Positions 5,361 to 23,500 of a stretch of DNA of 64,000 bases are shown piece after piece; the first letter of the stretch is position 1; each line of letters starts with the position of its first letter. The notes under the pieces are model-generated. The model had not been told where the DNA came from, made no database searches, and saw only the letters and a program-made list of their open reading frames with translations. This stretch comes from an uncultured Planctomycetota bacterium (GTDB taxonomy: Bacteria; Planctomycetota; Planctomycetia; Isosphaerales; Isosphaeraceae): contig CAWJTV010000041.1 in the NCBI GenBank assembly GCA_963845755.1, forward strand, positions 256,001 to 320,000. Reading direction: 5' to 3'. The position numbers were made by a program, and so were the translations under genes.

Positions 5361-8300
5361 ATGAGCGCGGCAAGCATCCAGCAACAGCGCAGCCGACAGG
5401 CCGTCGGGTCTGCCCTGACGCCGTTCGGGTACGATGCGGACTGCATCCGGTTCGATTGGCCATTGCCGAATGCTGAAGCAATTCAGCAATACAAGTCCCA
5501 AGACCGAGGAGATCCCGGACACCCTCCCAGCGGTAGCGTGCGTATCCTCGACGTCCTAGCGTTCTCCGACCCACGGAGGCAGGACTGGAACACGTCCGCT
5601 GTTGCGGCGGACCTTACCCAGGATGACATCGTCTGCAACGGTTCCAGCCGAGAGAAGGCGAGGGAACTCTTCCGTCTGACGGCCGCACCGATTAATCTCC
5701 TGGGTAGTCTCAGCCGGCGCAAGGTCGATGTCTGGTTCAACTGCCACGATGGTATGATCGGTGCCGAAGAGGTGGACCTGGATGTCGATGCGCTGAAGGG
5801 TGTTTTCAGGCAACACCGCTCCGCCGTCCAGCGCGACCTCCTAGCTCAACTACGACAGGAGCAACGGCACCTCTTCGACGGTTACGTCTACGCCTGCCGC
5901 GACGAGCTCGCCACGTTTCTCCAGCGCGGCGTTTCCAAGGCGACCTGGATTGTTAGAGGCCACTCGTGGGGCCAGGACAAGGAGTCGCAGGCGGCCCTGC
6001 GGGAAGCGTTCTCGCGAGTGGCCCTGGCGTCCTCGCCGCGCGTATCCTAGAAGATAAAGGGGCACTTGGCGAGGGGCGAGGCCAGTCCGTCGAGTCGCGA
6101 CAGATCCTCCGCGACGCGCACGAGATGGGACTCGTTTTTTGACACGGTGCTCGACGAAGACCTGCCCCAACTTGATGGGTGGTTCGAGCGAACTCGGGTC
6201 GATGAGATGCTACGCTGCCTGCTCAGTCATCTGACGGGGCCGATGAACTTCAGTCTGGTCACTCACGAGATGTTAGGCGATCTTTACGAGCGTGCCCTCG
6301 TCGCGGAGCGGAAGGTGGGAGGAGAGTCTTTTGTCAAACTCAAGGGGGTCCATTACACGCCGCTATCGATCACCCGACAGATCCTCGACCGCATTCCGCT
6401 TGAATTCCTCCCGCCTTCGCAGCGGTCGGTGTGCGATTTCGCTTGCGGCTCCGGGTCGTTTCTCCTCGCGGCGACGGAACGGCTGGCGAAGCTGTTCGAC
6501 CCGCGAGAGCCCGAGTCTCCGGAGGACGCGCTCTCGTACCTCAAGAATGCGGTGTTTGGCAACGACATCGACCGAGTAGCGATCCTCGTCGCGAGGCTGT
6601 CTTATTTGCTAGCGTACTGGAACAGGACGGACCTGGAGGGCAGCGTTCCATACCCTCATTTCCACAAAGGGGGCGATGCTCTGACCCTGGATTTGACCGC
6701 TGCTTTCGGTCGCCGCCCCCGCGTCATTGTCAGCAACCCTCCGTTTGATGTGGAAGGCCAACCGGCCAGTTCATTCTTGCTCCGGCGCACTGGAGATCTT
6801 GTCTCAAAACGAGGGGGTTTGGCCCAGCTACCTTGGAATGGTGATGCCCGGCGCTTTCCTGACCGGAGAACAGATATCAGAAGAAAGGCAAGGGAGAATC
6901 TTCTCAGGGTTACCGATCTCCTTGACGTCTGGGAGCTTCCTGAGCACGCCATCGGGCAGTATGCTGAAGCTCCAACCTGCGTGATCCTCGCGGAAGTGGG
7001 TAGCAAGCCATCTGGGCGCCGACTGGTGAGAGTTTCGCAGACATACAGTCGTCAGGTGGATGCGCTGTCCACACTCCGTGATGCTGCCGTCCCAACGTGG
7101 TCGTATGTTGCCTCACTCGGAGGGAGACAAGACAGGAACGGTCAGGAATCAGCAGTACTGGAGGGCCTCGCCTTTTCCACGATCGATGACCTCTGGGACC
7201 GAATGACGATCCATAAACTATTCCTGTCGATGTTAGCAGAGGCTGTCTGGGGATTTCTGCACACCAAGAAAAAGAAGAATTCTGATCCCGAGTTCTCATC
7301 CGAGGTTGAGGACGAAACTTTCGTCCCCTTCCTGAAACATCAAAGTGCTCTTGCCCCTTACGTAGTGACCCATGATGATTGGCTCGCTAGCCACGATGAT
7401 GATCAGCACTATTGGAAACGGGGAACCGGACCTCGACCTTGCCGAAAGGAACTGGCCGAAGTATGAGTCTGGAAAAGATCATTATTACGGCGCAGGGCAA
7501 CCGAAATGCCAAGTCCCAGCTCCTCGCTGCGATGGAGTTCGAGGGAATCTACCCGGGTAAGCACTTCCTTGCAGTTGTGCTCCGTGACGATTGGTCGGAC
7601 ATTATAGAGCGACGATACGCCCGTTGTCCGAGAGGAAGTGCTGATATTCTCCGTTGGCTGTGCACATCTTGAACAGCCCCCTTGGAGACGCCTGGTTCGC
7701 CGAGCAGTCTGGTCCAAGGGGGCCGCGAGCCGAGGTCGTCACGGGGATTCCCTTACCTCCATCGTACGATCCAGCGATTCCGGAAGCTGTAGCCTCAATT
7801 GCGGAACGACCTAGGCCACGAAATCTCCGTGAGTTTGCGACGTGGAATCCGGAAGCTGGGATCATCCCCGAAGACTCCGACCTCTTTGGTGAGGAGCCAG
7901 AGCAGGCCCGTCGCGACAATGATTATTGGCATGCCGTTCATCAACTAAATGAGCTCGTGGTCCGCAGCTACGGTCTGAGCCAGTTCGATCGCTCACGGGT
8001 GCTGGCCTACCTCCGCGGGATGACCGATCCCTGGGCCGATCACTTGAGTAGCGTGGCGACGCTGCCCCCCCACACATTCTTACGCGTGCTTCGGGGTAAG
8101 ACGATTGGCGTAGATCTGCTGCGCCAGGAACTGAAGGCCGAGCTCTCGTGGCGAACACTAGGAGGTGGCAAGACGGTCGCAATTCCGATCCCCAAGTTCA
8201 TGCCGGGCTGGGCGCTCGGCGAGGGCCAGGAATTCACCTGCCGCGCTCCCCGCGGATGCGTCGTTGGTGATGATCGAGGCGAACCCGTGGCTCCTGCGAG

Positions 8301-8383
8301 ATTTCCTGCCCGTTTCGTACAGTTACTTGAGCGTGGAGGCCCTGGAGGAGATGGTGGGTTATAAGAAGGTGGTCGGCCGATGA
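5361..8383 (+). CDS. Large (about 1000 aa) N6-adenine DNA methyltransferase, type IIG/Eco57I-like architecture; about 7-8 frameshifts
   Basis: Joined fragments give LAARILEDKG, LGDLYE, KGVHYTP, motif I DFACGSGSFL, GNDID, motif IV VIVSNPPF, GMVMPGAFL, and a TRD-like region (ILNSPL...LNELVVRSYGLS); the last fragment's TGA (8381-8383) overlaps the next ATG. Confidence 0.8.
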
Positions 8384-9468
8384 CAGGGGCTGCTTCAGGA
8401 GACCTCCGCGTCAGCATGCTGGACGTCGGCGAGGGGGACGCCATCGTTGTTTTTCTTCCCGGCACGCGCCGGGCGTTGGTCGTGGACGCCTTCGATGGCA
8501 AGCGTGTGGTCCGCGCCCTCGAAGAGAACGCGATCGACGAGATTGTTCTGTTCCTCAGCCACTCGGATCAAGACCATGTCGCAGGTGTCCAATACCTCCT
8601 CGACAACTTCCGCGGTCGCTTCCTGGCTTTTTTCTACAATAGGGACCGCCTAAACGCTCGGCTCGGTTCAACGTACGTCGAACTTCTCCGAAGCGTGGCG
8701 CGAGCAACGAGGGAGCAGGCAGCGAGAAATGAGAACGCCTGGAGCGGGGATTTCAACACCAATCTCAGCTCCGATATCCGGTTTCCTCAGCTCACGCAGA
8801 CACCCGTTTCCCTCGAAATCCTGCACCCGACGCACGACGAACAGAACAGCCTGCTGGGCACCTCGACTAACGAGACGTCTGGCATACTCCGGATTGTCTA
8901 CACGTTTCCGGACGAGGGGACGCGTAAGATTCTCTTGACCGGGGACGTGCAGCTAACCGGCATGTCTTGTCTCCTGCATCGCTTTCGGAACTCACCCGAC
9001 AGGCTGCGGGCGGATGTCCTGAAGTTCCCCCACCACGGGGCCTGGCCATCGGGCCACCCCGGGATCAGTCAATTTCGAGGAGTCGAGAAGCGCACCCTGA
9101 TGGACCTTCTGGAGGCGGTCGATCCCGAGATCGTCGTCCTTTCGGTCGGCACGGAGAACAATCACGGCCATGTACGTCCGGAGGTTTTCGCCGCGCTTGG
9201 CACGCTTCGGAGCCGGAAGCTACGGATAAAGCGATTCGTATGTACGCAGATCACGCGGACCTGCCTGCACGCGACCGCTCACGGCGTCGCGGCTGCGTGC
9301 GGCGGAGACGTCGAGGTCCGCATCGGCGAAGGCCTGCCAAGCCGCATCGAAGTCGTCCCCTCGGAACCTGACCACCTTTCACGCATCCTCTCCCTGACCG
9401 ATCGGAAACACGCTGCCTGCGCAGCTTTTCTACCCGATTCAGGGGCTTCGATCAGCAACCAGCGGTGA
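8380..9468 (+). CDS. MBL-fold metallo-hydrolase, ComEC/Rec2-like (putative nuclease), no membrane domain
   Basis: LDVGEGDAI, SHSDQDHVAG (HxDxDH), LLTGD, KFPHHG, SVGTENNHGH; intact ORF with ATGA overlap on the methyltransferase. Confidence 0.85.
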   Translation: MTGAASGDLRVSMLDVGEGDAIVVFLPGTRRALVVDAFDGKRVVRALEENAIDEIVLFLSHSDQDHVAGVQYLLDNFRGRFLAFFYNRDRLNARLGSTYVELLRSVARATREQAARNENAWSGDFNTNLSSDIRFPQLTQTPVSLEILHPTHDEQNSLLGTSTNETSGILRIVYTFPDEGTRKILLTGDVQLTGMSCLLHRFRNSPDRLRADVLKFPHHGAWPSGHPGISQFRGVEKRTLMDLLEAVDPEIVVLSVGTENNHGHVRPEVFAALGTLRSRKLRIKRFVCTQITRTCLHATAHGVAAACGGDVEVRIGEGLPSRIEVVPSEPDHLSRILSLTDRKHAACAAFLPDSGASISNQR

Positions 9469-9802
9469 ACCTCGCTCACGGATGACGCGCGGATTAGATC
9501 GGGCCGATTGCCTGAATTCTCGTTGGTGATCCGTGTCGGACTGTGTGATTCGTGGTGAAAAGCCAAACCGCTGACGATCACCGAGTGATCCCGGAATTCC
9601 TTGCATGAATTACGCCCACAGACACGGGGTGGGCTGAGTTCGCCGAGTCGATCCCCGCAGTGGTCACGAAACCGATCCAGTCGCGTTCGTGACGAGATTC
9701 CCGGACACTGTGGCCCACTCACGGCCGCGCGAAGACTCTCAATCTGTGCATGCGCGAACGGAGCCGGGTTGTGACCGTTTTGGCGAAGTCCTTGCCGATC
9801 GC

Positions 9803-12647
9803 TCACGGCCGCGCGAACGGATCGGCGGGAAAATCGAGATCCGTGCGCCTCAACCGCCATCGATTCGCCCGGGCCGTTTCACCCATCGACTCATAGAGCC
9901 GGATCACGCGATCTTCGTGAGTTTTGAACTCGCCCCACAAGTCCGCCGGGACCTGGTGTTCCGGATCTATCATCCATTGATGAGCAAGCGTCAATTCGGC
10001 TTCAGCCTCCGGATACGCCTTCCGTCCGAGCAGGCAGAACCCGACCGTGAACTCGGCGACGTACCGGTCGGCGCCGTCGGCGCCGTGCCGGAGCCAGTAC
10101 GCCAGGTGCTCGCGCGCAACGATTCCGCCCTGGCAAAATCGCCGGTAACCACATACAACCCGATCACCGCCCTGGTCCCCGCATCGGTGAGGCCATGGTC
10201 GGGGCCAAAGCGTGCGCGGGTGATCTCGAGCGCCTCGGTGAGGTACTGGCCGACCTTCTTCAAGTCTCTTTTATGAACATAGATTACAGCCAGTTGAGCG
10301 AGGACCGCGTCGGTCGTCAAATGGTTGCGGTCGAGTGCCTTTCGGCATGACTCGAGGGCTTCGAGCAGCAGGGGTTCGGCCTGATCGTTCTTCCCTTGTA
10401 AGAGGTAATTCTGTGCGAGCGTTGCCATGGTCACGAGCGTTGCGTGGTGTCCGTCTCCGAGGACGTGCCGCTGGCTGAGCAAGACGTCCTTCAAGATGGG
10501 TTCGGCCTCGGCGGGTTTCTGGAGTATCCCGTAGACGGCCGCCAGGTTCAAACGGGCCGTGAGCGTCAGAGGATGCTCCGGGCCGACCGACTCTTGCAAC
10601 CCTCGGACGGTGTCCTTCAGGATTCGCTCGCCCTCCTCCGGCTTCATTTGAGCGACGTAGAGCATGGCGAGGTCGTTGGCGGCGGCGAGCGTTTTCGGGT
10701 CTCCGGGACCCAGGACTTCCCGAAAAATCCGCAAGGCCGGTGCGAGGAGTTTTTCCGCCTCGCCATACTGCTCTTTCTGGTTATAGACTGCGCCGGCGGC
10801 TTGCATCGCGGTGAGCGTCTCGGAGTCGTTCGGCCCACGGGTGGCGTGGAGGCCCTCCATGGCGTGGACCAGGAGGTGTTCGGCCTCCGCCAGCTTGCCA
10901 TCCATCATGAAGAGCATCCCGAGCCGGGACTGCGCGACCAGGGTTTCGGCGGCGTCCGCGCCGAGCAGTCGGGTCCGCAATTCGATGACCCGCTCGAGTT
11001 GAGGTCGAGCTTTCGCGAACAGTCCGAGATCCAGGTAAGATTCGCCGATGGTCTGACGAATCGCCGCCTCGACCAGCGGTCGGCCGGCGAATCGGGCGCC
11101 GATGGTCTCGGCCGCGTAGTCCACGGCGGTGACGACTTTCAGGTCCGGGTCGGGCCTACGATCGATCCGGGCCTGGTTCTCGGCGCCGGCCTGGCCCAGG
11201 ATATCCTCCCGGAGGAAGGCATTGACGGCCCGGGAGATCTCCGTCTCGGTCTCGGCCCGATCTCGTTCCGAACGAGCGGTCGCCGCGGCACGCCGGGCAG
11301 ATCGTTCGGCGGAAGTGGCCCGGACGGCCTGCCAGGTGCTGCCGATTGCGCCCAGGAGCAAAGCGAGCAGGAACGCCGCGATCCAACGATTTCGCCGGCA
11401 CCAGCGCACACAACGCTCCGCGGGCGAGGCCGGGCGCGCCAGGGTTGGGCGGCCGTCCAGGAACCGCCGTAGATCCTCGGCCAGGTCGGCTGCGGTCAGG
11501 TACCGCCGGGCCGGCTGCTTCTCCAGGCATTTGAGGCAGATCGCCTCCAGGTCGCGCGGGATGCCGGGCTGGCGAGCGGACGGCGGGACGACCTCCTGGG
11601 AGAGGATCGCATGGAGGACCTGATGGGGCGTCTCGGCGCGATAGGGGGGCCGGCCGGCCAGGGCCTCGTAGAGGATCGCGCCCAGGGCATGAATGTCGGT
11701 GCGCGGGCCGATCTCGCCCCAGTCGGCCCGGACCTGCTCGGGCGCCATGTAGCTCAGGGTGCCCAGCATCATGCCCTCTTCGGTCTGGGTCGTGGAATCC
11801 TTGAGTTTGGCCAGGCCGAAGTCGGTGATCTTGGGCCGGCCGTCGGGGGTCAGCAGGACATTCGCCGGCTTGAGATCGCGATGGACGACGCCCTTGCCGT
11901 GGGCGTGGTCGATGGCACGGGCGAGGGTCTCGACCAGCTCGGCGGCGCGGCGGGGCGGCTGAGGCTTGCCGGCCAGGGTGCGCCCGAGATGGCTGCCGTC
12001 GACGTACTCCAGCGCCAGGTAGAATTCGCCGTCGTGCTCGTCGAAGTCGTGGATCTGGACGAGGTTGGGATGCTGGCATCGGGCCGCCGCGGCGGCTTCG
12101 CGGCGGAATCGGGCCAGGTGAGCGGGGTCATCGTCTCCGGAGTCCTTGAGCAGCTTGAGCGCGACGTGGCGATTGAGGGCGTCGTGCCGGGCGAGGTAGA
12201 CGACGCCCATACCGCCTCGGCCCAGGACGCGCTCGATCTCGTAGCCGGGGATTCGCGGCAGCCGGGCGTCGGACCACCGATGGCGAGCGGTGCCCGCGAC
12301 CGCAGGAGCGGCCCCGGCCGACTCGTCGCGCCGCAGGGTCGGCAGGGAGGCGGCCGCGTGGACCTCGAAGAGGCGGATCAAGGAGTCGGACAGCTCGGGG
12401 AACTCGGTGAGGTAATCCTCGGGCCGAGGGGTCTCGCCACGCTCCTGGCGGAGGACCACCTCCTGGTTGATCAGCTCGACGATGACGGTCGGCCGGTCGC
12501 GCATGGCGGGCTGGCGACCGAGGTAGAACTTCAGGGGATGCGGCGTGCCCCTGGTCCAGTCCTCCACCTGCCGCGCAACAGCTCCTCCAGCGCAGGGTCG
12601 AGGGGATCGGCCGCGCCCGGGCGGTAGCCGAAGGTCGTATCACTCAT
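9803..12647 (-). CDS. Hanks-type Ser/Thr protein kinase with a TM helix and TPR repeats; frameshifts near 12570 and in the 3' region (about 10000-10110)
   Basis: LGRGGMGVVY, VALK, HRDLKPANVL, DFGLAK, GTLSYMAPEQ, TM segment WIAAFLLALLLGAIG, kinesin-light-chain-like TPRs; reconstructed start MSDTTFGY (12647) and end FPADPFARP*. Confidence 0.9.
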
Positions 12648-13220
12648 CGCACCGATCCTCCAGGCCCAGGGCGAACATGATGCGTCTGGTCGCGCGGTCG
12701 AGCGTCTTGCGCACGGCGTCGGCGTTCTTGCCCAGCCGTTCGGCGACCTGATCCCATGACAGCCCCTCTTTCCTCAACTCGGCGATCGGACGCTCGCGGT
12801 CGGTCAGAAGGTGCTCTGCCTTCTGAATCAGCTCGCTCAAAGCGATCTGGCTGGCCGGTCCCGGTCCGGGTGCAATCGGTTCGATGCCGTCGATCCCGGG
12901 ACCGCCGACGGGCACGGGCGGAACTCGGAACTCGGGCTTGCGCGCCAGGTCGGCGACCTTGTTGCTCGCGATCCGCGCCAGGAGTTTCTTCAGACCGTCC
13001 GAGTCGGCGATCTCGTACTGACCGACCGCGGCCCTGACCAGGAAGCTGCCGAGGACCACCTGGCAGACATCCGACGAGTCGTTGACCCGCCGGATCCGCA
13101 TCACGCGCAGCCGCGCCGGACGACCCGGCGGATGTGGGGTTCATAGGTGTGGACGAACTCCGACGCGGCCAACTCGTCGCCCTGCCGGATGAGCTGGAGC
13201 AATTCTTGAAGTCGGCTCAT
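12640..13220 (-). CDS. ECF-type RNA polymerase sigma factor (kinase-associated type); frameshift near 13110
   Basis: MSRLQELLQLIRQGDELAASEFVHTYEPHIRRVVR, region 2 DSSDVCQVVLGSF, region 4 GLSWDQVAERLGKNADAVRKTLDRA; overlaps the kinase start. Confidence 0.85.
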
Positions 13221-14570: not shown

Positions 14571-17500
14571 ATGAACGTCCGCTTGCCACGGCAGATTCGC
14601 GCACTTCGTTCGGAATCGTTTTCGCGGCGACGGTCGGGCAAGAGGGACGTCCTCCCCTTCCTCGAATGGTTGGAAGCTCGGCGGCTCCTCTCGACGTATC
14701 TGGTCCAGAACAACGACGATTCGGGGACGGGGTCGCTGCGCGCCGCGATCGAGGCGGTCAATCTCGATCCCGCGTCGAATGGCCAGGACATCATCGAACC
14801 CGGTTCGTCGAGCATCGGCACGATCGCGCTCCTGTCGTCGCTACCGGCCTTGACCCGGGGCGATGTGACGATCGAGGACCTCGACATCGACGGGAGCCAG
14901 GCGGGCTCCAACGCCGACGGGCTGGACGTCGAGGCCAACGGCATCGCGATCGCCGGTCTGGGGATCACCGGATTCAGCGCCACGGGCGTGGTGGTGTTCG
15001 GCGATCAAACCTCGATCACGGGCAGCACGATCACGGGGAACAGCGGGGCGATCGACATCTTCGGAGCCAGCAACAACACGATCGGCGGTGCAGGCGCTGG
15101 CGAGGGGAACGTCATCTCGGGGAGTGCCGGTGACGGTATCTATGCGGTCGGCGCGGGGACGTCCGACAATCTCATCGAGGGCAACCTCATCGGCACGGAT
15201 GCCAGCGGCACAGGCGCGCTGGCCAACGGACTCTGTGGGATCTACTTCGGCGACGCCGGGGCCGGCAACACGATCGGGGGTTTGGCAGCCGGCGCCGGGA
15301 ACGTCATCTCGGGGAATGGGCAGGATGGCATCGAGCTGACCGGTCAAGGGACGACGGGGACCGTCATCGCCGGGAACCGGATCGGCACGAATGCCTCCGG
15401 GACCGGGGCGATCCCCAACTCGTTCGGGGGCCTCTTGATCACCGACAGGGCCACGGCGGTCCTCGGGTCCGGAAATACGATCGCTGGCACGGTGTTGATC
15501 AACGACGGCGCCTCAGTGGACCTGACCGGGTCCTCGAATAGAATCTCGGGCACTGCCTGGCTCAGCCTCGGCGGGGGCTCCAGCGCGGCCCCGGGCGCGC
15601 TCAATGTCACCGGCCCCGCGAACTCGATCACCGGCGGCTTGTACGTCAACCACGGCATGTTGACCATCTCCGGCACCTCGCTCGAGGTCACCGGCCGCGA
15701 CACGCTCTTGAGCGGCAGCATCTCGGCCTCGAGTGGAGGTTCGCTGAATCTGGCCGGGCTGACCGCCCTCAACAATGCTTACGACCTGAGCCTCACCGCC
15801 AACGGCCCCGGGAGCAGCCTGGACATCTCCAACGTGTCGAGCATCAGCGGCACTGGCATCTCGATCACGGAGACCAACGGCGCCGAGCTGTCGCATGGAC
15901 GACAGCTTCACGACCCTCGATGGCGTGTTGTTCACGATCGATAGCACGAGCGACCTGGCCAATCTTCTGATCAACAACCTCACCGCGCTGACCGATGGCG
16001 GCCTCACCGTGCTGGGGGGGAACTATACCTTCCCGAACCTGGCCGACATCGACGGCTCGTCGCTGGACGTGGAGAACGGCGCCAGCCTCTCGTTGCCCGG
16101 AGTGACCAGCGAGACCAACGGCGCGGGTGTGAATTATGGACTGCCGTTCTTTGCCAACGGCGGCGGCAAGCTCAGCCTGGTGAAGCTGGCGACGATCACA
16201 GGCGACGGAGTCAATGTCTCGGCCGATGGGACGGGCAGCACGATCGACCTTTCGGGCCTGACGACGTTTGACGTCAACCCGGCCGGTGGCGCCCTGTTCG
16301 CCTCCAACGGCGGCACGATCGATCTGAATGCGAACCTCACCACCATCAACGGCGCCAACGTCTACATCGACGCGACCAGCACCATCACGCCGCTGACTCA
16401 GCTCACCGCCTTGACCGGCGGCACGCTCACGCTCAACGGCGTCGATGCCTCGAATGCGTTCCCGGACCTGGCGACCATCGACGGGCTGGGCATCCTGGTG
16501 GAGGAAGGCGGCAGCCTGTCGTTGCCGATGGTCACGAGTTATACCAACAACGGGTATCCGTTCAGCGAATCCCTCCAGGTCCAGGATCCCAACAGCGCGC
16601 TCAGCCTGCCGAACCTGGCCACGATCACCGGCAACGGCGTGAGTATCGTCGCCTCGGGGACGGGGAGCCGGATCGACGTGTCGGGCCTCACGAGCTTCGG
16701 CACGTACAACGAAGGTCTGTCAGTCACCGACGGCGCCACGGTCGAGTTGAACCCGGCCTTGACCAGTTTTGACAATCTCGATCTTACGCTGGACGGTACG
16801 GGGACTCTCCCGATCGGTCAGTTCACGTCGTTGACCGGCGGCACCATCACGATCGAGGGAGGCAACTACACTTCGTCGGGGCCATCCTGGTTCTCCAGCT
16901 TGACCGACATCGACGGCACGAGCTTGACCGTCTTCGGCGGGGGCGACCTCGCTCTGGGGGTAACGAGCTACAGCGACTACTGGAGCTCGACGTTCCAGGT
17001 TTTCGGCACGAACAGCGTGCTCGACCTCTCCGCCTTGACGATGATCGATGGCGACAACGGCGTCATGAGCCTGTTAGCTTCGGGCAACGGGAGCGAGATC
17101 GACGTTTCCGCCCTGACCTCACTCAATACGCCCCAGGGCGGGACCCTGAGCGTCACCCAATCCGGTACCATCCTCGACGGCTCGCTGACGGCCCTGCACA
17201 ACATGGCCGTCAACGCTCGATGGGACCGGGAAGTTGGCGACCCGACAATGGACCACCCTGACCGACGGCGAGCTGTCGATCTCCGGCGGCCGATACACAT
17301 CGCCCACGACGGGGACATCGTCGGGGTCAATTGCCAACCTCAGCAACATCAACGGGACGGGCCTCTACGTCTCGAACGGCAGCCTGACCCTCCCCGCCGT
17401 GACTTCCTACAACTCCGATGGGCGGCACATCGGCTTTGTAGCCTCCGGCTCGGGTGCGGTGCTCAGCCTGCCTCATCTGACGAGTGCCACTGCAGCCTAT

Positions 17501-20500
17501 TATTCGGGATCGGGATCAGGTCCGGGTTCGGGCCCGCCAGTCGGCGCGGCCGCAACCAGGAGCGGAAGCTCGGGCTATGGCGCCGCCTTGAACTTCAAGG
17601 CCAAGGGCGGCGGGCAAGTCCTGGCGCCGGCCCTGACGTCGATCACCGACGGGGATTATGCGTCCGATCGGCGCCCAGGCCATCGGTCCCAACAGTCTGG
17701 TCAACCTGTCGGCGGTGACGTCGTTCGAGACGTACAGCGGGACCATCGAGGCCCTCCAGGGCGGCAGGGTCGACCTGAGCAGTGTGACCAGTCTCCAGAG
17801 CGTGTCGATCACAGGGGACGGTGCCAGCACCCTCCTGATCGGCCGACTCGCCGCGTTGAATTACGCCAACCTGACGATCACGGGGGGGACGTTCGACGAC
17901 CCGACCCTGACCAACATCGACAACACGAGCCTCTACGTCTCCGGCGGCGCGATCCTGACCCTCCCCGGCATCTCAAGTTATGTCAACAATACATATTATT
18001 ATAGAAATACGTTTGGGGCGACGGACACCACCGCGGGCGGCGTCATCAGTTTGCCCAACCTGGCGTCGATCGGCGGATCCTATGGCGTAAAGATCGAGGC
18101 CGCGGGAACAGGCAGCCAGATCGACCTACCCAAGCTCACCTCATTCACCTCAACCTATTTCGGTGCGGCGCTGAGCGCAACTCAGGGCGCGACGGTCGAG
18201 GACGGCGGCCTGACCAGCTTGACGGGCGTGGCCGTGACGCTCGACGGCACGGGCAAGCTGGCCGTCAGCAGGTGGACGTCGCTGACCAACGGCACCCTGA
18301 CGATCACCGGGGGCGACTATGCCCCCACCGCAGGCGCGGTCACCGCCGACAACTCCTTCGCCAACCTCGCGGACATCGACGGCTCGGGGCTGTACGTCTC
18401 CGGCGGCGGCAGCCTGAGCCTGCCCGCCGTGACTTCGTATACCGACAATGACAACGACAAAGCCTTCCAAGTCATCGACACCACTTCCGGCGGCGTCCTC
18501 AGTCTGCCCAAACTGGCGACGATCGGCGGAGCTTATGCGGCACAGATCCAGGCCGCGGGCGCGGCCAGCCAGATCGATCTACCCAAGCTCACTTCGTTCA
18601 GCGCGACCTATCTGGGCGAAGCCGTGCTGAGTGTGACGCAGGGCGCGACGGTTGAGGACGGCGTCCTGACCAGCTTGACGGGCGTGGCCGTGACTTTGGA
18701 CGGCACGGGCAAGCTGGCCGTCAACCAGTGGACCGCGCTGACCAACGGCAGCTTGAACGTCACGGAGGGCGACTACGCCCCCACCGCGGGCGCGGCCACC
18801 GCCGACAATTCCTTCGCCAACCTCGCGGACATCGACGGCTCGGGGCTGTATGTGTCCGGCGGCGGCAGCCTGAGCCTGCCCGCCGTGACGTCGTATACCG
18901 ACAATAACAACGAGAAGGCTTTCCAGGTCACCAACACCACGGCGGGCGGCATTCTCAGTCTGCCCAACCTGACGACGATCACCGGAAATTATGGGGCTCA
19001 GATTGTAGCCGCCGGCGCGGCCAGCGAGATCGACCTGCCCAGGCTCACCTCGTTCAGCGCGATCTATTCAGGCACCGCCTTGCTGAGCGTGACCCAGAGC
19101 GCGACGGTCGTGGCCGGCGACCTCGCGACTCTCAACGCCGTGGCCGTGACGCTCGACGGGACGGGCACTCTGGCGGTCGGCCAGTGGACCACCTTGACCG
19201 ACAGCAGCTTGACGATCACCGGGGGCGACTACGCCGACAATACCTTCACCAACCTCGCGGACATCGATGGCTCGAGCATCTACGTGTACGGCGGGGGCAG
19301 CCTGGTCCTCCCCGCCGTCATCACGGATACGAACAACAACGGTTATGAATCCCTGCAGGCGTACCAGCCCAACGCGTACTACGGGCAGACGCCCACGGTT
19401 GGCGTGATCAGCCTGCCCGACCTGACGACGATCGGCGGGAATTATGGGCTTGAAATCCAAGCCGCGGGCAGCTCCAGCGAGATCGATCTGCCCCAGCTTA
19501 CCTCGTTCAGCGCAACCTATTCAGACGCGGCCTCGTTGAAGGTCACTCAGGGCGCGACGGTCGAGGACGGCGCCCTGACGACCCTCAACAACGTGGCCGT
19601 GACGCTGGACGGCACGGGCACGCTGGCTGTCAATCAGTGGACCGCGCTGACCAACGGCAGCTTGACGGTCACCGCGGGCGACTACGCCCCCACCGCGGGC
19701 GCGGCCACCGCCGACAATTCCTTCGCCAACCTCGCGGACATCGACGGCTCGGGCATCTACGTATACGGTGGGGGCAGCCTGACTCTCCCCGTTGTCACCA
19801 CCTACACCAACAACAACTACAGTTACGAATTCCTGCAAGCCGACCAGTTCACCTTCTACGACTATACCAACGGAACGTATTACGGCTCCGGGTCGGTGGG
19901 CGTGCTCAGCTTGCCCGCCCTGACGACGATCTCCGGGCAATACGTCTTCGTCCTGGCGGGAGGGACGGGGAGTGAGATCGACCTGCCGGTGCTGACCTCG
20001 ATTAACCTGATTGGCTCTGGCGGACTGAGCGTCACCAATGGCGCGACGGTCCATGACGGCAGCCTGACGACCCTCAACGGCGTGACGGTGTCGATCGATG
20101 GGAGCGCCACGCTGGACACCAGCCCGTGGGCCACGTTCACCAACAGCCACATGGACGTCACCGGGGGTTCGTACACGTTCAATCTCCTGACCCATCTGGA
20201 CGGTTCGAGCATCGACCTCGGCGGTGGAGCCACGGTCACGCTGACGGCCTTGACGAGCTATTCGAATCCGAACGGCTATGATACGACCTCTCTGCAGGCC
20301 AGCGGCGGGGGAACTGTGCTCAGTCTGCCGGAGCTGACCAGCCTGGGGACCGACAACAGCATCCTCGACATCCAGGCCCTCCAGGGCGGCCAGGTCCTGC
20401 TCCCGCTGCTGGGGGCGATCACCGATGCCAGCCCCTACGTCGAGATCGAGTCCGACGGCACCAGCGGCACGGGCGGCTCGGGAAGCCTGATCGACCTGTC

Positions 20501-23500
20501 ATCGCTCGCCAGCTTCGCGGGCAATGGCTATTACGCCAGCCTCCAGATCACCGACGGCGCCTCGGTGATCGATCCGAACCTGACCAGTTTCACCGACGTC
20601 AACCTGACCCTCGACCCGACCGTCACGTTCCCACTGACGCCGAGCGAGAATTTCACGGTGACCACCGGCGCGTCGATCTCGGTGACGACCGGCACCCTGG
20701 TCGAGCAAGGCAGCCTGACCATCCCGGACCGGGCAGCGGTCACGCTCAACGGCTCGCTGGAAGTCGACGGCTCCGGAGTGCTGGTGCTCACGCCGGCGGC
20801 CGCGCTGAACATCAGCGGCAACCTGACCGGCAGCACAACCAACGCCGACCGCTTCACGCCGCTCGGGACCGTGCTCTTCGACAACACGTCCGCAGCCCAG
20901 CAACTGGAAGCCATGTCGGCCGACCTGGGGTCCGAGCAGGCGGGGTTCGTCAACAATTTCGCTTACGGGACGATCAGCCTGGCGTCCGGCACCTACTTGC
21001 AGTTGGTGGACAATGCCCACAATTCCAGCGGGACCGGGGCCGAGGCCGTCTACGCCAACGGGTTGATCGTCCCCTCGGGCGCCACGCTCGACCTCAACGG
21101 CCTGCACATGTACGTCCGCGGGGCGGTGATCTCCGGTACCGTCCTCAACGGCACGGTCACGCTGATACCCGGCGGCGGTGCGCTCCAGGTCGGCACGCCC
21201 GTGGCCAGCGACCTGGTCGCCGCCGGTGCGATCGACAACTGGACCTTCTTCGGCCGGTCGGGTGAGACGGTGACCATCGCGGTCAATCCCGGCGGCTCCG
21301 GCGCCAACCCCGCCTTGAACCCCCAGATCGGGGCGGTATCGGTCGAGCTCCTGGACCAGTTCAATACCGTGCTGGCCCAGGGGAGCAGCAGCAACGGCTC
21401 GATCGTGACCTTGAGCGGCGTCACGTTCCAGGTTGACGGCATCTATACGCTCCGAGTCTCGGCGCCGAGCGGGTCGACGGCCACGGGCAACTACACGGTG
21501 GCGGCCTACGACGTCACGCCACACGTCCAACCACTGAGTCTGGGCCAGACCGAGGTCGGCACGCTCAACAGCGCGTTCGGCATCGATCAGTGGACGTTCT
21601 CGGCGGTGGCCGGAGAGCAGATCAAGTTCAACCTGGTCAATTCCACCTATGGCAGCGAAGTCTTCGACCTGACCGGCCCCGGCGGCTACACCGCGTTCTC
21701 CGGCCTCCAGGCCAGCTCCGGGCTGATCACCCTCCCTTCGACCGGGAATTACACGCTGGCGGTCGAGGGCACCGGCGGCACCGGCGGCAGTTATGCCTTC
21801 GAGGTCGATGAGCTGACGGTGACCGCCCTGACCCTGGGGACGATCTACCAGGGGACCATGGGCGGCTCCGGCCAGTCCGACCTGTACTCGGTGGTCGTCC
21901 CTTCGTCGCAGACGCTGTTCGTCAACCTGCAGGACAGCGCGACGGGGGCCGTGAACCAGCTCTACGCCAAGCTCGGCACACCGCCGACTCCGTCCGATTA
22001 CGAATACAGCTCGATCGCGCCGGGCGATGCCGATCAGCAGGTCCTGGTCCCATCGGCCGCACCGGGCACCTGGTACTTCCTCGTCTACGGCGCGTCGGCG
22101 CCGACCTCCAGCCCGTACACCATCGTCGCCACCGGCGCCGGTGCAACTCGCCAACGTCTCCCCCGGCTACTCGGCGTTCGGCGCCCCCGCGACGCTGACC
22201 CTCAGCGGCGCCGGGTTCGACCAGGCCACGTCGGTGACCCTGGTCCCGGCGGTCGGTCCGCCGACCGCATACACGGCCACCGGCGTCTCGATCGACACGC
22301 TCACACAGCTCACCGCCACGTTCAACCTGAGCAAGGTGCCCGAAGGGCTATATTCGGTGATCGTTACCCGCGCCGACGGCACGTCAGCCGAATTGACGGC
22401 CGCCTTCAGCGTGACCAGCCCCGGCGCGGCCCATCTCGTGACCAACCTGATCCTCCCGAGCGTGATGGGGCGCCACGAGTCCTCGATCATCGACATCCAG
22501 TACTCCAACATTGGCAGCCAGGCGATGCCGGCGCCGCTCCTGGTGCTCTCGGCGCCGCCGGAGACCATCGACGGCCAGACGATCGTCAACCTCCCCCTAT
22601 TCACGCTCAACCCGGCGCTCCAGGTCTCCGGCTTCTGGACCTCGGCGCTGCCGGCCGGCTACTCCAACACCGTGGAGATCCTCGGCAGCGGCAAGGTCCC
22701 CGGCGTGCTCGAGCCGGGCGAATCGATCACCGTGCCGGTCTACTATGCCGGCATGCAGCAGCCCTGGAGTTTTGCCGAGTCGAACTTCGACTTCAGCCTG
22801 CAAACCTATCCCCAGAGCGACAGCACGACGGTCAATTGGAGCAGCCTGCAATCCAGCCTCCAACCGCCGGACATGTCGAGTGCCACCTGGAATGTCGTCT
22901 TCTCCAGCCTCACGTCGCAGATCGGCACCACCTGGGGCAGCTTCGTCAAGGCCATGGACGATAACGCCACCTATCTGGGCCGGCTGGGCGAGGACGTCAC
23001 CGACGTGACGTCCCTCTGGCAGTTCGAGATCGAGCAGGCCGAGGGGCTCTCTCCGGTCGGGACCCTCGCCAGCCAGGCCGACATCTCGGTCCCGTCGGCC
23101 GGCGACCTGCTGGATTTCACCCGCCAGTTCGCCAACTCGCTCTTGACGCGCAATACGCTCGGCCCGTTCGGCTACGGTTGGACCGACAATTGGCAGTATT
23201 CGCTCGCGGTGGGCTCCGACGGCACGGTCACCGTCACCATGCCTTCCGGGCAAGAGCGCGTCTTCCAGCCCGACAGCCGATCGGCGGCCTACTTCTCCCA
23301 GCCGGGAGACCACGGGACCCTGATCCGGGAGGTCAATGGCTCCTTCCTGCTGGAGGAGGCCGACGGCACGACCGAGGCGTTCAACGGCAACAGTACGCTC
23401 GACTACATCCAGGACCAGAACGGCAACCGCGTCACGGCGGGCTACAGCGATGGACAGCTCGTCAGCCTCTCGTCGACGTCGGGCGAATCGCTGGCGATCG

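Follow-up and report, generated by a model that had tools for sequence, protein, structure and literature searches.

The stretch of DNA analysed here, the window, comprises 64,000 nucleotides of an uncultured planctomycete of the family Isosphaeraceae (assembly GCA_963845755.1, 14.3 Mb in 49 contigs; contig CAWJTV010000041.1, positions 256,001 to 320,000). At positions 5361-9468 it carries a cassette of two genes (Table 1): one codes for a large N6-adenine methyltransferase resembling type IIG/IIL restriction enzymes, the other for a stand-alone hydrolase with a ComEC-type metallo-beta-lactamase (MBL) fold, and the stop codon of the first and the start codon of the second share the ATGA at 8380-8383. 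A first-pass annotation had put the pair forward as a candidate undescribed defence system. The details it reported, namely methyltransferase motifs I and IV, the ATGA overlap and an intact MBL protein with its metal ligands and cysteine-rich tail, were all located in the sequence; the methyltransferase of roughly 1000 residues is indeed about 1005 residues long judging by intact homologs, but is not a single open reading frame in the window, where some eight frameshifts interrupt it.

Table 1. Features of the cassette and of the two further methyltransferase genes of the same genome.
Feature	Position	Strand	Remarks
Type IIG/IIL-like N6-adenine methyltransferase ('chassis') gene	5361..8383	+	intact homologs about 1005 residues long
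N-terminal domain resembling restriction nucleases (MmeI_N, HSDR_N), predicted catalytically dead	5361..5885	+	domain lead, motif survey, structure model
Methyltransferase motif I, DFACGSG (S-adenosylmethionine binding)	6435..6455	+	C, G, S, G invariant in 38 homologs
Methyltransferase motif IV, NPPF	6735..6746	+	invariant in 38 homologs; N invariant in 113
Variable target-recognition region and terminal helices	7150..8025 (approximate bounds)	+	TaqI_C matches in sisters, low conservation
Junction (DPW in the window copy, RP/RPG elsewhere in the family) with the beta domain of ~110 residues that ends the chain	8026..8383	+	predicted to dock the effector
Stand-alone ComEC-type MBL-fold hydrolase, intact, 362 aa	8380..9468	+	predicted nuclease/phosphodiesterase effector
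MBL metal-ligand motifs HSDQDH, GD, HHG, HGH	8560-8577, 8941-8946, 9031-9039, 9163-9171		
MBL Cys/His tail (C288, C295, C307, H332, C347)	9241..9420	+	putative zinc site
Second chassis gene, frameshifted	G000 C13:203853-206955 (L191, L230, L235)		~60-aa tail, overlapping PIN gene
Third chassis gene, frameshifted	G000 C32:88061-91374 (L233, L234)		helical tail, overlapping HNH-like gene

The AlphaFold model of the intact homolog P0094 (pLDDT 91.4, pTM 0.92) runs from an alpha/beta head through a helical region, the methyltransferase core and the recognition region to a separate five-strand C-terminal domain. Two of these parts, the degenerate nuclease-like head and the C-terminal beta domain of about 110 residues, had been overlooked in the first-pass annotation. 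The head resembles MmeI_N (0.91) and HSDR_N (0.87), both leads without E-values, and its fold assignment combines them with a motif pattern. Across 113 homologs an Asp is present in 65 rows, no residue exceeds 13 of 113 at the expected Lys, and the next strand carries no conserved E or K; the head thus lacks the (D/E)xK motif and is predicted to be catalytically dead. The recognition region is poorly conserved, with TaqI_C matches in two sister-clade homologs (E 1.5e-5 and 5.4e-5). In the C-terminal domain the model puts a helix behind the third strand, and the domain is OB-like by topology only; a ribosomal S1 match (E 0.026) stood among many chance matches.

The second protein has its ComEC-type MBL fold confirmed by the HxDxDH, D, HH and H ligands together with a sequence match to ComEC structures, its closest solved relatives being ComEC nuclease domains (9ic4, E 6.6e-17). 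It keeps 67 of 71 conserved positions, and five Cys/His positions of its tail are conserved at 90% or more in 68 MBL sequences. The 362-residue chain contains no membrane Competence domain, Lactamase_B being its sole Pfam match. We infer that this MBL cuts nucleic acid.

Conservation of the pair and exchange of its parts

Homologs of both genes are found mostly side by side. Among 93 matches to the MBL, 58 are homologs at 40-82% identity, and among 47 matches to the methyltransferase piece, 38 are long homologs at 35-74%; the closest homologs of the pair are named from Planctomycetes. At 80 MBL-centred metagenome loci, counted without dereplication, a methyltransferase lies directly upstream in 58, there is no room for one in 10, and it is absent in 12; 11 of these are distant MBLs (at most 92 bits), and the twelfth is half of a gene, lying behind an insertion. 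The best eight methyltransferase-centred genome loci have the MBL downstream in six and reach a contig edge in two. This coupling, together with the failure of either gene to reach a curated cut-off, supports the suspected undescribed and conserved two-gene cassette.

The methyltransferase-MBL family is rare and patchy. Profile matches in seven sampled groups came to 14/401, 9/351, 3/301, 4/201, 1/201, 2/301 and 9/121 genomes, some of the weak ones being ordinary type IIG-like proteins, and a close MBL was present in 1 of 61 genomes, the window's own. Mobility is suggested by the low GC content of the window copy and by a plasmid copy that lies beside Tn3 and recombinase genes; viral contigs gave two weak matches and phage records none. 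A MerR-type regulator precedes 12 loci, and a helix-turn-helix gene of this type lies upstream in one branch of the MBL version (L121, L126, L128, L129, L138, L145, L151, L152, L162, L168, L172, L173, L217).

What can be said of relatives with other partners? Sister methyltransferases are followed by a PIN, HNH, RES or HEPN-like gene (the HEPN label was given by eye, with no Pfam match), mostly at a spacing of -24 to +10 bases. The genome of the window itself carries three such methyltransferases, here called chassis: the MBL-paired window copy, one paired with PIN (C13; GC content 0.526, surrounded by insertion sequences and toxin-antitoxin-like genes) and one paired with an HNH-like gene (C32), the HNH version being the common one in this genome's family. 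In an alignment of 11 proteins, conservation of the chassis extends to an invariant RP; after a short linker the tails diverge by partner type. Among 69 distinct tails, in a comparison that omitted ten more distant PIN-paired proteins and the rows without an assigned partner, 60 found a match at E<1e-3, six were unmatched and three proteins had no tail; in all 60 cases the locus that supplied the best match had the same type of partner (43 MBL, 10 PIN, 7 HNH). Six cross-type rows, all of one HNH tail against three PIN tails, fit the shared 27-column linker. The domain that ends the window protein is present in 43 of the 45 tails paired with an MBL, and a profile built from these 43 matched none of 21 tails with other partners.

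Partner changes are also evident between related chassis: that of Rhizobium Q54 pairs with RES, whereas PIN is the partner of two relatives that are 45.7% and 42.5% identical to it. On a FastTree phylogeny of 103 rows, in which long branches were flagged, the partner label needs at least six changes; PIN adjoins HNH there and MBL adjoins HEPN. Judged from these alignments, the methyltransferase is a chassis whose C-terminal tail swaps jointly with the downstream partner gene.

Other arrangements exist at the edges of the family. A distant methyltransferase clade, mostly from Alphaproteobacteria (L033, L034, L037, L039, L040, L046, L054, L059, L065, L084), has no tail and is followed by PIN genes whose products bear an N-terminal extension. 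At L038 (3291-3773) a 161-residue protein without Pfam, NCBIfam or PADLOC match follows a distant chassis-like methyltransferase and is possibly a further effector type. An apparent natural fusion at L159 was not counted; its first MBL motif is missing, and it looks like a deletion.

Two of the tails resemble antitoxins. Xre/MbcA/ParS antitoxins are the known partners of RES toxins, and the RES-paired tail matches their toxin-binding domain, Xre_MbcA_ParS_C (E 1.5e-4), and their middle domain, Xre-MbcA-ParS_M (E 0.011), the adjoining gene matching RES at E 1.5e-16. Two small stand-alone proteins of this genome, both encoded immediately in front of a VapC-like gene, match the PIN-paired tail of L183 with their C-terminal halves (E 6.8e-10 and 2.5e-9; VapC and ribbon-helix-helix are labels given by eye).

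For 23 distant MBLs the upstream genes were examined as well. Four of the proteins encoded there, none of them a methyltransferase, have a C-terminal domain that is matched by the L202 tail (E 2.2e-13; 42.2 bits, against 5.8 bits for the best of 500 shuffles), and four other upstream proteins end in a domain matching that of the window type (hhalign probability 67%, E 5e-5). The upstream open reading frames of L002, L003, L004 and L006, which belong to related genomes, are unannotated, with a beta-domain C-terminus related to the window tail, and the stretches examined at these four loci contain no methyltransferase. DUF3006-like small genes lie directly upstream of ComEC-type MBLs at L007, L008, L011, L013, L015 and G000 C11:431478-432191, with DUF3006 confirmed by Pfam in all four that were scanned. 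A small beta domain before a ComEC-type MBL thus recurs behind different front ends. Homology of the window-type domain with the receiver-type and DUF3006 domains is not claimed (hhalign probability 6-7%), and a match that had equated the L202 tail with the window-type domain was circular and was gone once L202 was left out.

A proposed sensor-effector mechanism

We propose, with about even confidence, that the pair is a sensor-effector module in which the tail of the methyltransferase restrains a toxic effector and then releases it. The methyltransferase would mark self DNA and scan DNA; the tail of this enzyme, whose head is predicted to be dead, would bind the separately encoded ComEC-type nuclease and silence it in healthy cells; and foreign DNA or an anti-restriction protein engaging the methyltransferase would free the effector or switch it on, with growth arrest or death of the infected cell as the outcome. 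A sensor-antitoxin fusion is the simplest explanation for the finding that one chassis serves RNase-, NADase- and DNase-type partners through partner-specific, partly antitoxin-like tails. Further points in favour of the module are the tight coupling of the two genes, the predicted dead head, the partner swaps among close kin, the recurrence of a beta domain with an MBL behind varied front ends, and the patchy, mobile occurrence of the family. For the MBL version we infer that the tail binds the MBL and that binding is inhibitory; a complex prediction of the L016 tail (150 residues) with its MBL scored 0.01, which speaks neither for nor against this. Both elements have precedents in published work: inactive nuclease domains in BREX-related helicases were argued to act as sensors (PMC12839542), and in PARIS an anti-restriction protein triggers toxin release (PMC13276650). 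The methyltransferase-MBL system is described in neither.

Two mechanisms had been put forward in the first-pass annotation, one restriction-like, with the MBL in place of the restriction nuclease, and one with an abortive effector. The second fits better, because close relatives pair with PIN, RES and HEPN-like proteins and carry antitoxin-like tails. These three families act on RNA or NAD+ and cannot replace a restriction nuclease. The restriction-like proposal still stands for the MBL and HNH versions. Under it, the methyltransferase would mark host sites and, at unmethylated sites, its tail would recruit and activate the MBL, which would cut foreign DNA only. We regard this as a less probable alternative, though for the MBL version a serious one, since the beta domain may assist the MBL rather than inhibit it. 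It draws on a domain layout of type IIG/IIL in which the methyltransferase motifs are intact and the recognition region varies, on the ComEC nuclease kinship of the MBL, and on the prevalence in this genome's family of HNH partners, which belong to a DNase family; the recurrence of a beta domain with an MBL in other cassettes suits a helper as well as an inhibitor. However, none of the PIN, RES and HEPN-like partners of this chassis belongs to a group known for site-directed DNA cleavage, and the RES-paired and one PIN-paired chassis carry antitoxin-like tails, so that the chassis would need two working modes.

A number of observations weigh against the sensor-effector module. First, the evidence on the tails is uneven: both Xre/MbcA matches of the RES-paired tail fall below the Pfam cut-offs; the HNH-type tail has only a weak match (E 0.096) to a stand-alone protein, which is encoded just ahead of an HNH-like gene; and the HEPN-paired and second PIN tails match no stand-alone protein. 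The window-type tail itself matches no known antitoxin, known family or solved structure and was not found stand-alone, all eight short matches being methyltransferase fragments; rather than inhibiting, it could activate the effector or help by binding DNA. Second, joint exchange has exceptions, in that the MBL-paired chassis L190 and L202 are without the window-type domain and three distinct PIN-paired chassis are without any tail, and kinship among the tails means that 60 out of 60 overstates their independence. Third, neighbouring genes are mostly housekeeping ones, with defence-type Pfam neighbours at about 8 of 33 hand-picked loci, a count made without a control. Finally, were the frameshifts of the window copy real, the MBL would be intact although the protein that should restrain it is dead, and this would argue against a free-standing toxin.

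Extending the sensor-effector module to the whole family, we tentatively suggest an unnamed, widespread immune class in which a disarmed restriction-modification enzyme serves as a universal sensor that captures the toxin-binding halves of antitoxins at one junction. It would set off effectors of the RNase (PIN, HEPN), DNase (HNH, MBL) or NADase (RES) type on meeting unmethylated DNA or a phage anti-restriction protein, and the beta domain with its ComEC-type MBL would be an unrecognised antitoxin-toxin pair, occurring also in receiver proteins and free as DUF3006 plus MBL. If true, this would provide a direct route from restriction-modification to toxin-antitoxin immunity, via captured antitoxin domains and interchangeable toxins. 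It would also give a function to a few hundred proteins labelled 'N-6 DNA methylase' (377 such clusters match at E<=1e-30, not all of them of this family), would extend the range of known effector modules to ComEC-type MBLs and the beta domains paired with them, and would describe a naturally modular switch triggered by DNA sequence. Intact versions of the cassette sit on plasmids of cultured strains. Among intact pairs are those of Pseudanabaena galeata (WP_281009617.1 and WP_281009618.1; MBL), Rhizobium sp. Q54 (CAD6438282.1 and CAD6438284.1; RES) and Sinorhizobium chiapasense (WP_331375624.1 and WP_331375623.1; PIN).

State and setting of the window copy

Frame-aware alignment of the window methyltransferase to its three closest intact homologs (1005-1006 residues) places frameshifts near 6031, 6119, 6789, 6880, 7443-7455, 7474, 7665 and 8260. 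These are eight events; against P0094 there are nine, two adjacent ones standing for one. The alignment contains no in-frame stop, and 795 of 995 aligned residues are identical to P0094 (80%). Of 155 positions conserved across 38 homologs the window copy shows 138; 15 of the 17 missing ones lie within or border two out-of-frame stretches, one matches the residue of the reference itself, and the last is a real change. Since there is no in-frame stop, identity is 80% and the conserved positions are nearly all kept, the frameshifts are probably long-read sequencing errors and not decay.

It is unlikely, though a point independent of the mechanism, that the family is real but the window copy a decaying pseudogene. 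What speaks for decay is the density of about eight frameshifts in 3.0 kb (2.7 per kb), around fivefold that of rpoB, rpoC, one secA copy and gyrA of the same assembly (about six breaks in 12-14 kb), and the fate of a close relative: in the closest metagenome-locus relative of the MBL (75-77% identity; halves at L099:567-1178 and L100) the gene is split around residue 193, where at least 1.9 kb has been inserted. Against this, each of those four essential genes is itself frame-split, both paralogous chassis genes of this genome are frameshifted, chassis copies in other large-contig assemblies are broken too, and the window copy combines its single true change and lack of stops with an intact MBL. 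Reads from one soil run with a small share gave three 151-base contigs, none of which spans a frameshift and one of which differs by one base at 9486, outside the genes.

The cassette is richer in AT than its surroundings, as had been noted: its GC content of 0.596 compares with 0.664 and 0.675 for the two flanks and with 0.644 +/- 0.023 for the genome as a whole, and values as low occur in 2.5% of 3448 genome tiles. The four flanking genes scanned code for a GH5 hydrolase, a DUF1559 protein, a ThuA+F5/8 protein and a Ser/Thr kinase-TPR protein; none is an HsdR, HsdS, helicase or nuclease, in agreement with the earlier observation that no separate restriction enzyme lies nearby. The kinase-TPR gene (9991-13104) is on the opposite strand, outside the cassette, with a sigma-factor-like open reading frame (labelled by eye) upstream of it, and at 14571-22964 lies a very long Gly/Thr/Ser-rich, surface-protein-like gene with apparent frame splits at about 15.9 and 17.7 kb.

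Setting also bears on whether the cassette has any anti-phage role. A pure addiction module, in which the fusion would tie a methylase or mobile element to the cell by post-segregational killing, would explain the antitoxin-like tails, the plasmid copies beside transposases and the many non-defence neighbours. Yet the dead nuclease-like head and the recognition region, needless for addiction alone, are kept in 113 divergent homologs, and some copies adjoin Shedu, AbiE, OLD, BrxC-like, DUF499/DUF1156 or type IIG genes; we consider such a module quite improbable. That an orphan methyltransferase lies beside an unrelated ComEC-like hydrolase by chance is barely credible and was ruled out by the conserved coupling: no curated model joins the two genes, but they occur in the same order in 68 of 175 loci, across several phyla, and overlap at ATGA.

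Relation to known systems

No NCBIfam model reaches its cut-off for either gene, and PADLOC returned weak generic matches only (e.g. PDC-M48, 19.6 bits). In the largely open-access literature searched, neither the pair nor methyltransferase-antitoxin fusions were described.

Among restriction-modification systems, type IIG/IIL enzymes (MmeI, Eco57I-like; RM.BsaXI, 8w0p) come closest to the chassis, with a nuclease-fold head, helical linker, NPPF core and recognition region in one chain. Unlike them, the chassis has a head without (D/E)xK, an extra swappable C-terminal domain and a linked separate effector gene. Type I systems differ in that no HsdR or HsdS neighbour is conserved beside the chassis. 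BrxX/PglX of BREX (9ewz) and MAD2 of MADS are likewise large adenine methyltransferases, giving weak profile matches to the core only, but their models stay far below cut-off on the chassis (23.6 vs 400 bits and 22.5 vs 720 bits), and no BrxC, PglZ or other MAD gene is conserved beside it. Ambrosia (AbrR-AbrA-AbrB-AbrC-AbrD; 10.1101/2025.09.30.679545) also links an N6-adenine methyltransferase to a separate nuclease effector; in contrast to that five-gene system, the pair consists of two overlapping genes, with no histidine kinase/HATPase or receiver gene.

The window MBL shares an HxDxDH-type site and a KxPHHG motif with the ComEC nuclease domain (9ic4, 30bt), 6A-MBL, Avs1a, Lamassu LmuA and the reverse transcriptase (RT)-associated MBL, but differs from ComEC and these effectors in being soluble and stand-alone with a Cys/His tail. 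It falls below the cut-offs of 6A-MBL (39.8 vs 220), ComEC (39.9 vs 190) and Avs1a (13.9 vs 420), and none of the partner genes of 6A-MBL, Avs1 or Lamassu is conserved beside it.

In its predicted working the pair is nearest to type II toxin-antitoxin defence (RES-Xre/MbcA, VapBC, PARIS), where a partner holds the toxin and, in PARIS, releases it on a phage cue (PMC13276650). Toxin-binding antitoxin domains of this kind end sister chassis, and an antitoxin-type gene before an overlapping toxin-type gene occurs in the RES-paired and one PIN-paired relative, the window tail having no antitoxin match. The difference is that the antitoxin-like part is fused to a methyltransferase of about 780 residues and not to an ATPase or a small domain that binds DNA. 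The pair is therefore outside type I, type IIG/IIL, BREX, MADS, Ambrosia, 6A-MBL, Avs1 and Lamassu, and is predicted to work like toxin-antitoxin sensor systems, with an unusual architecture.

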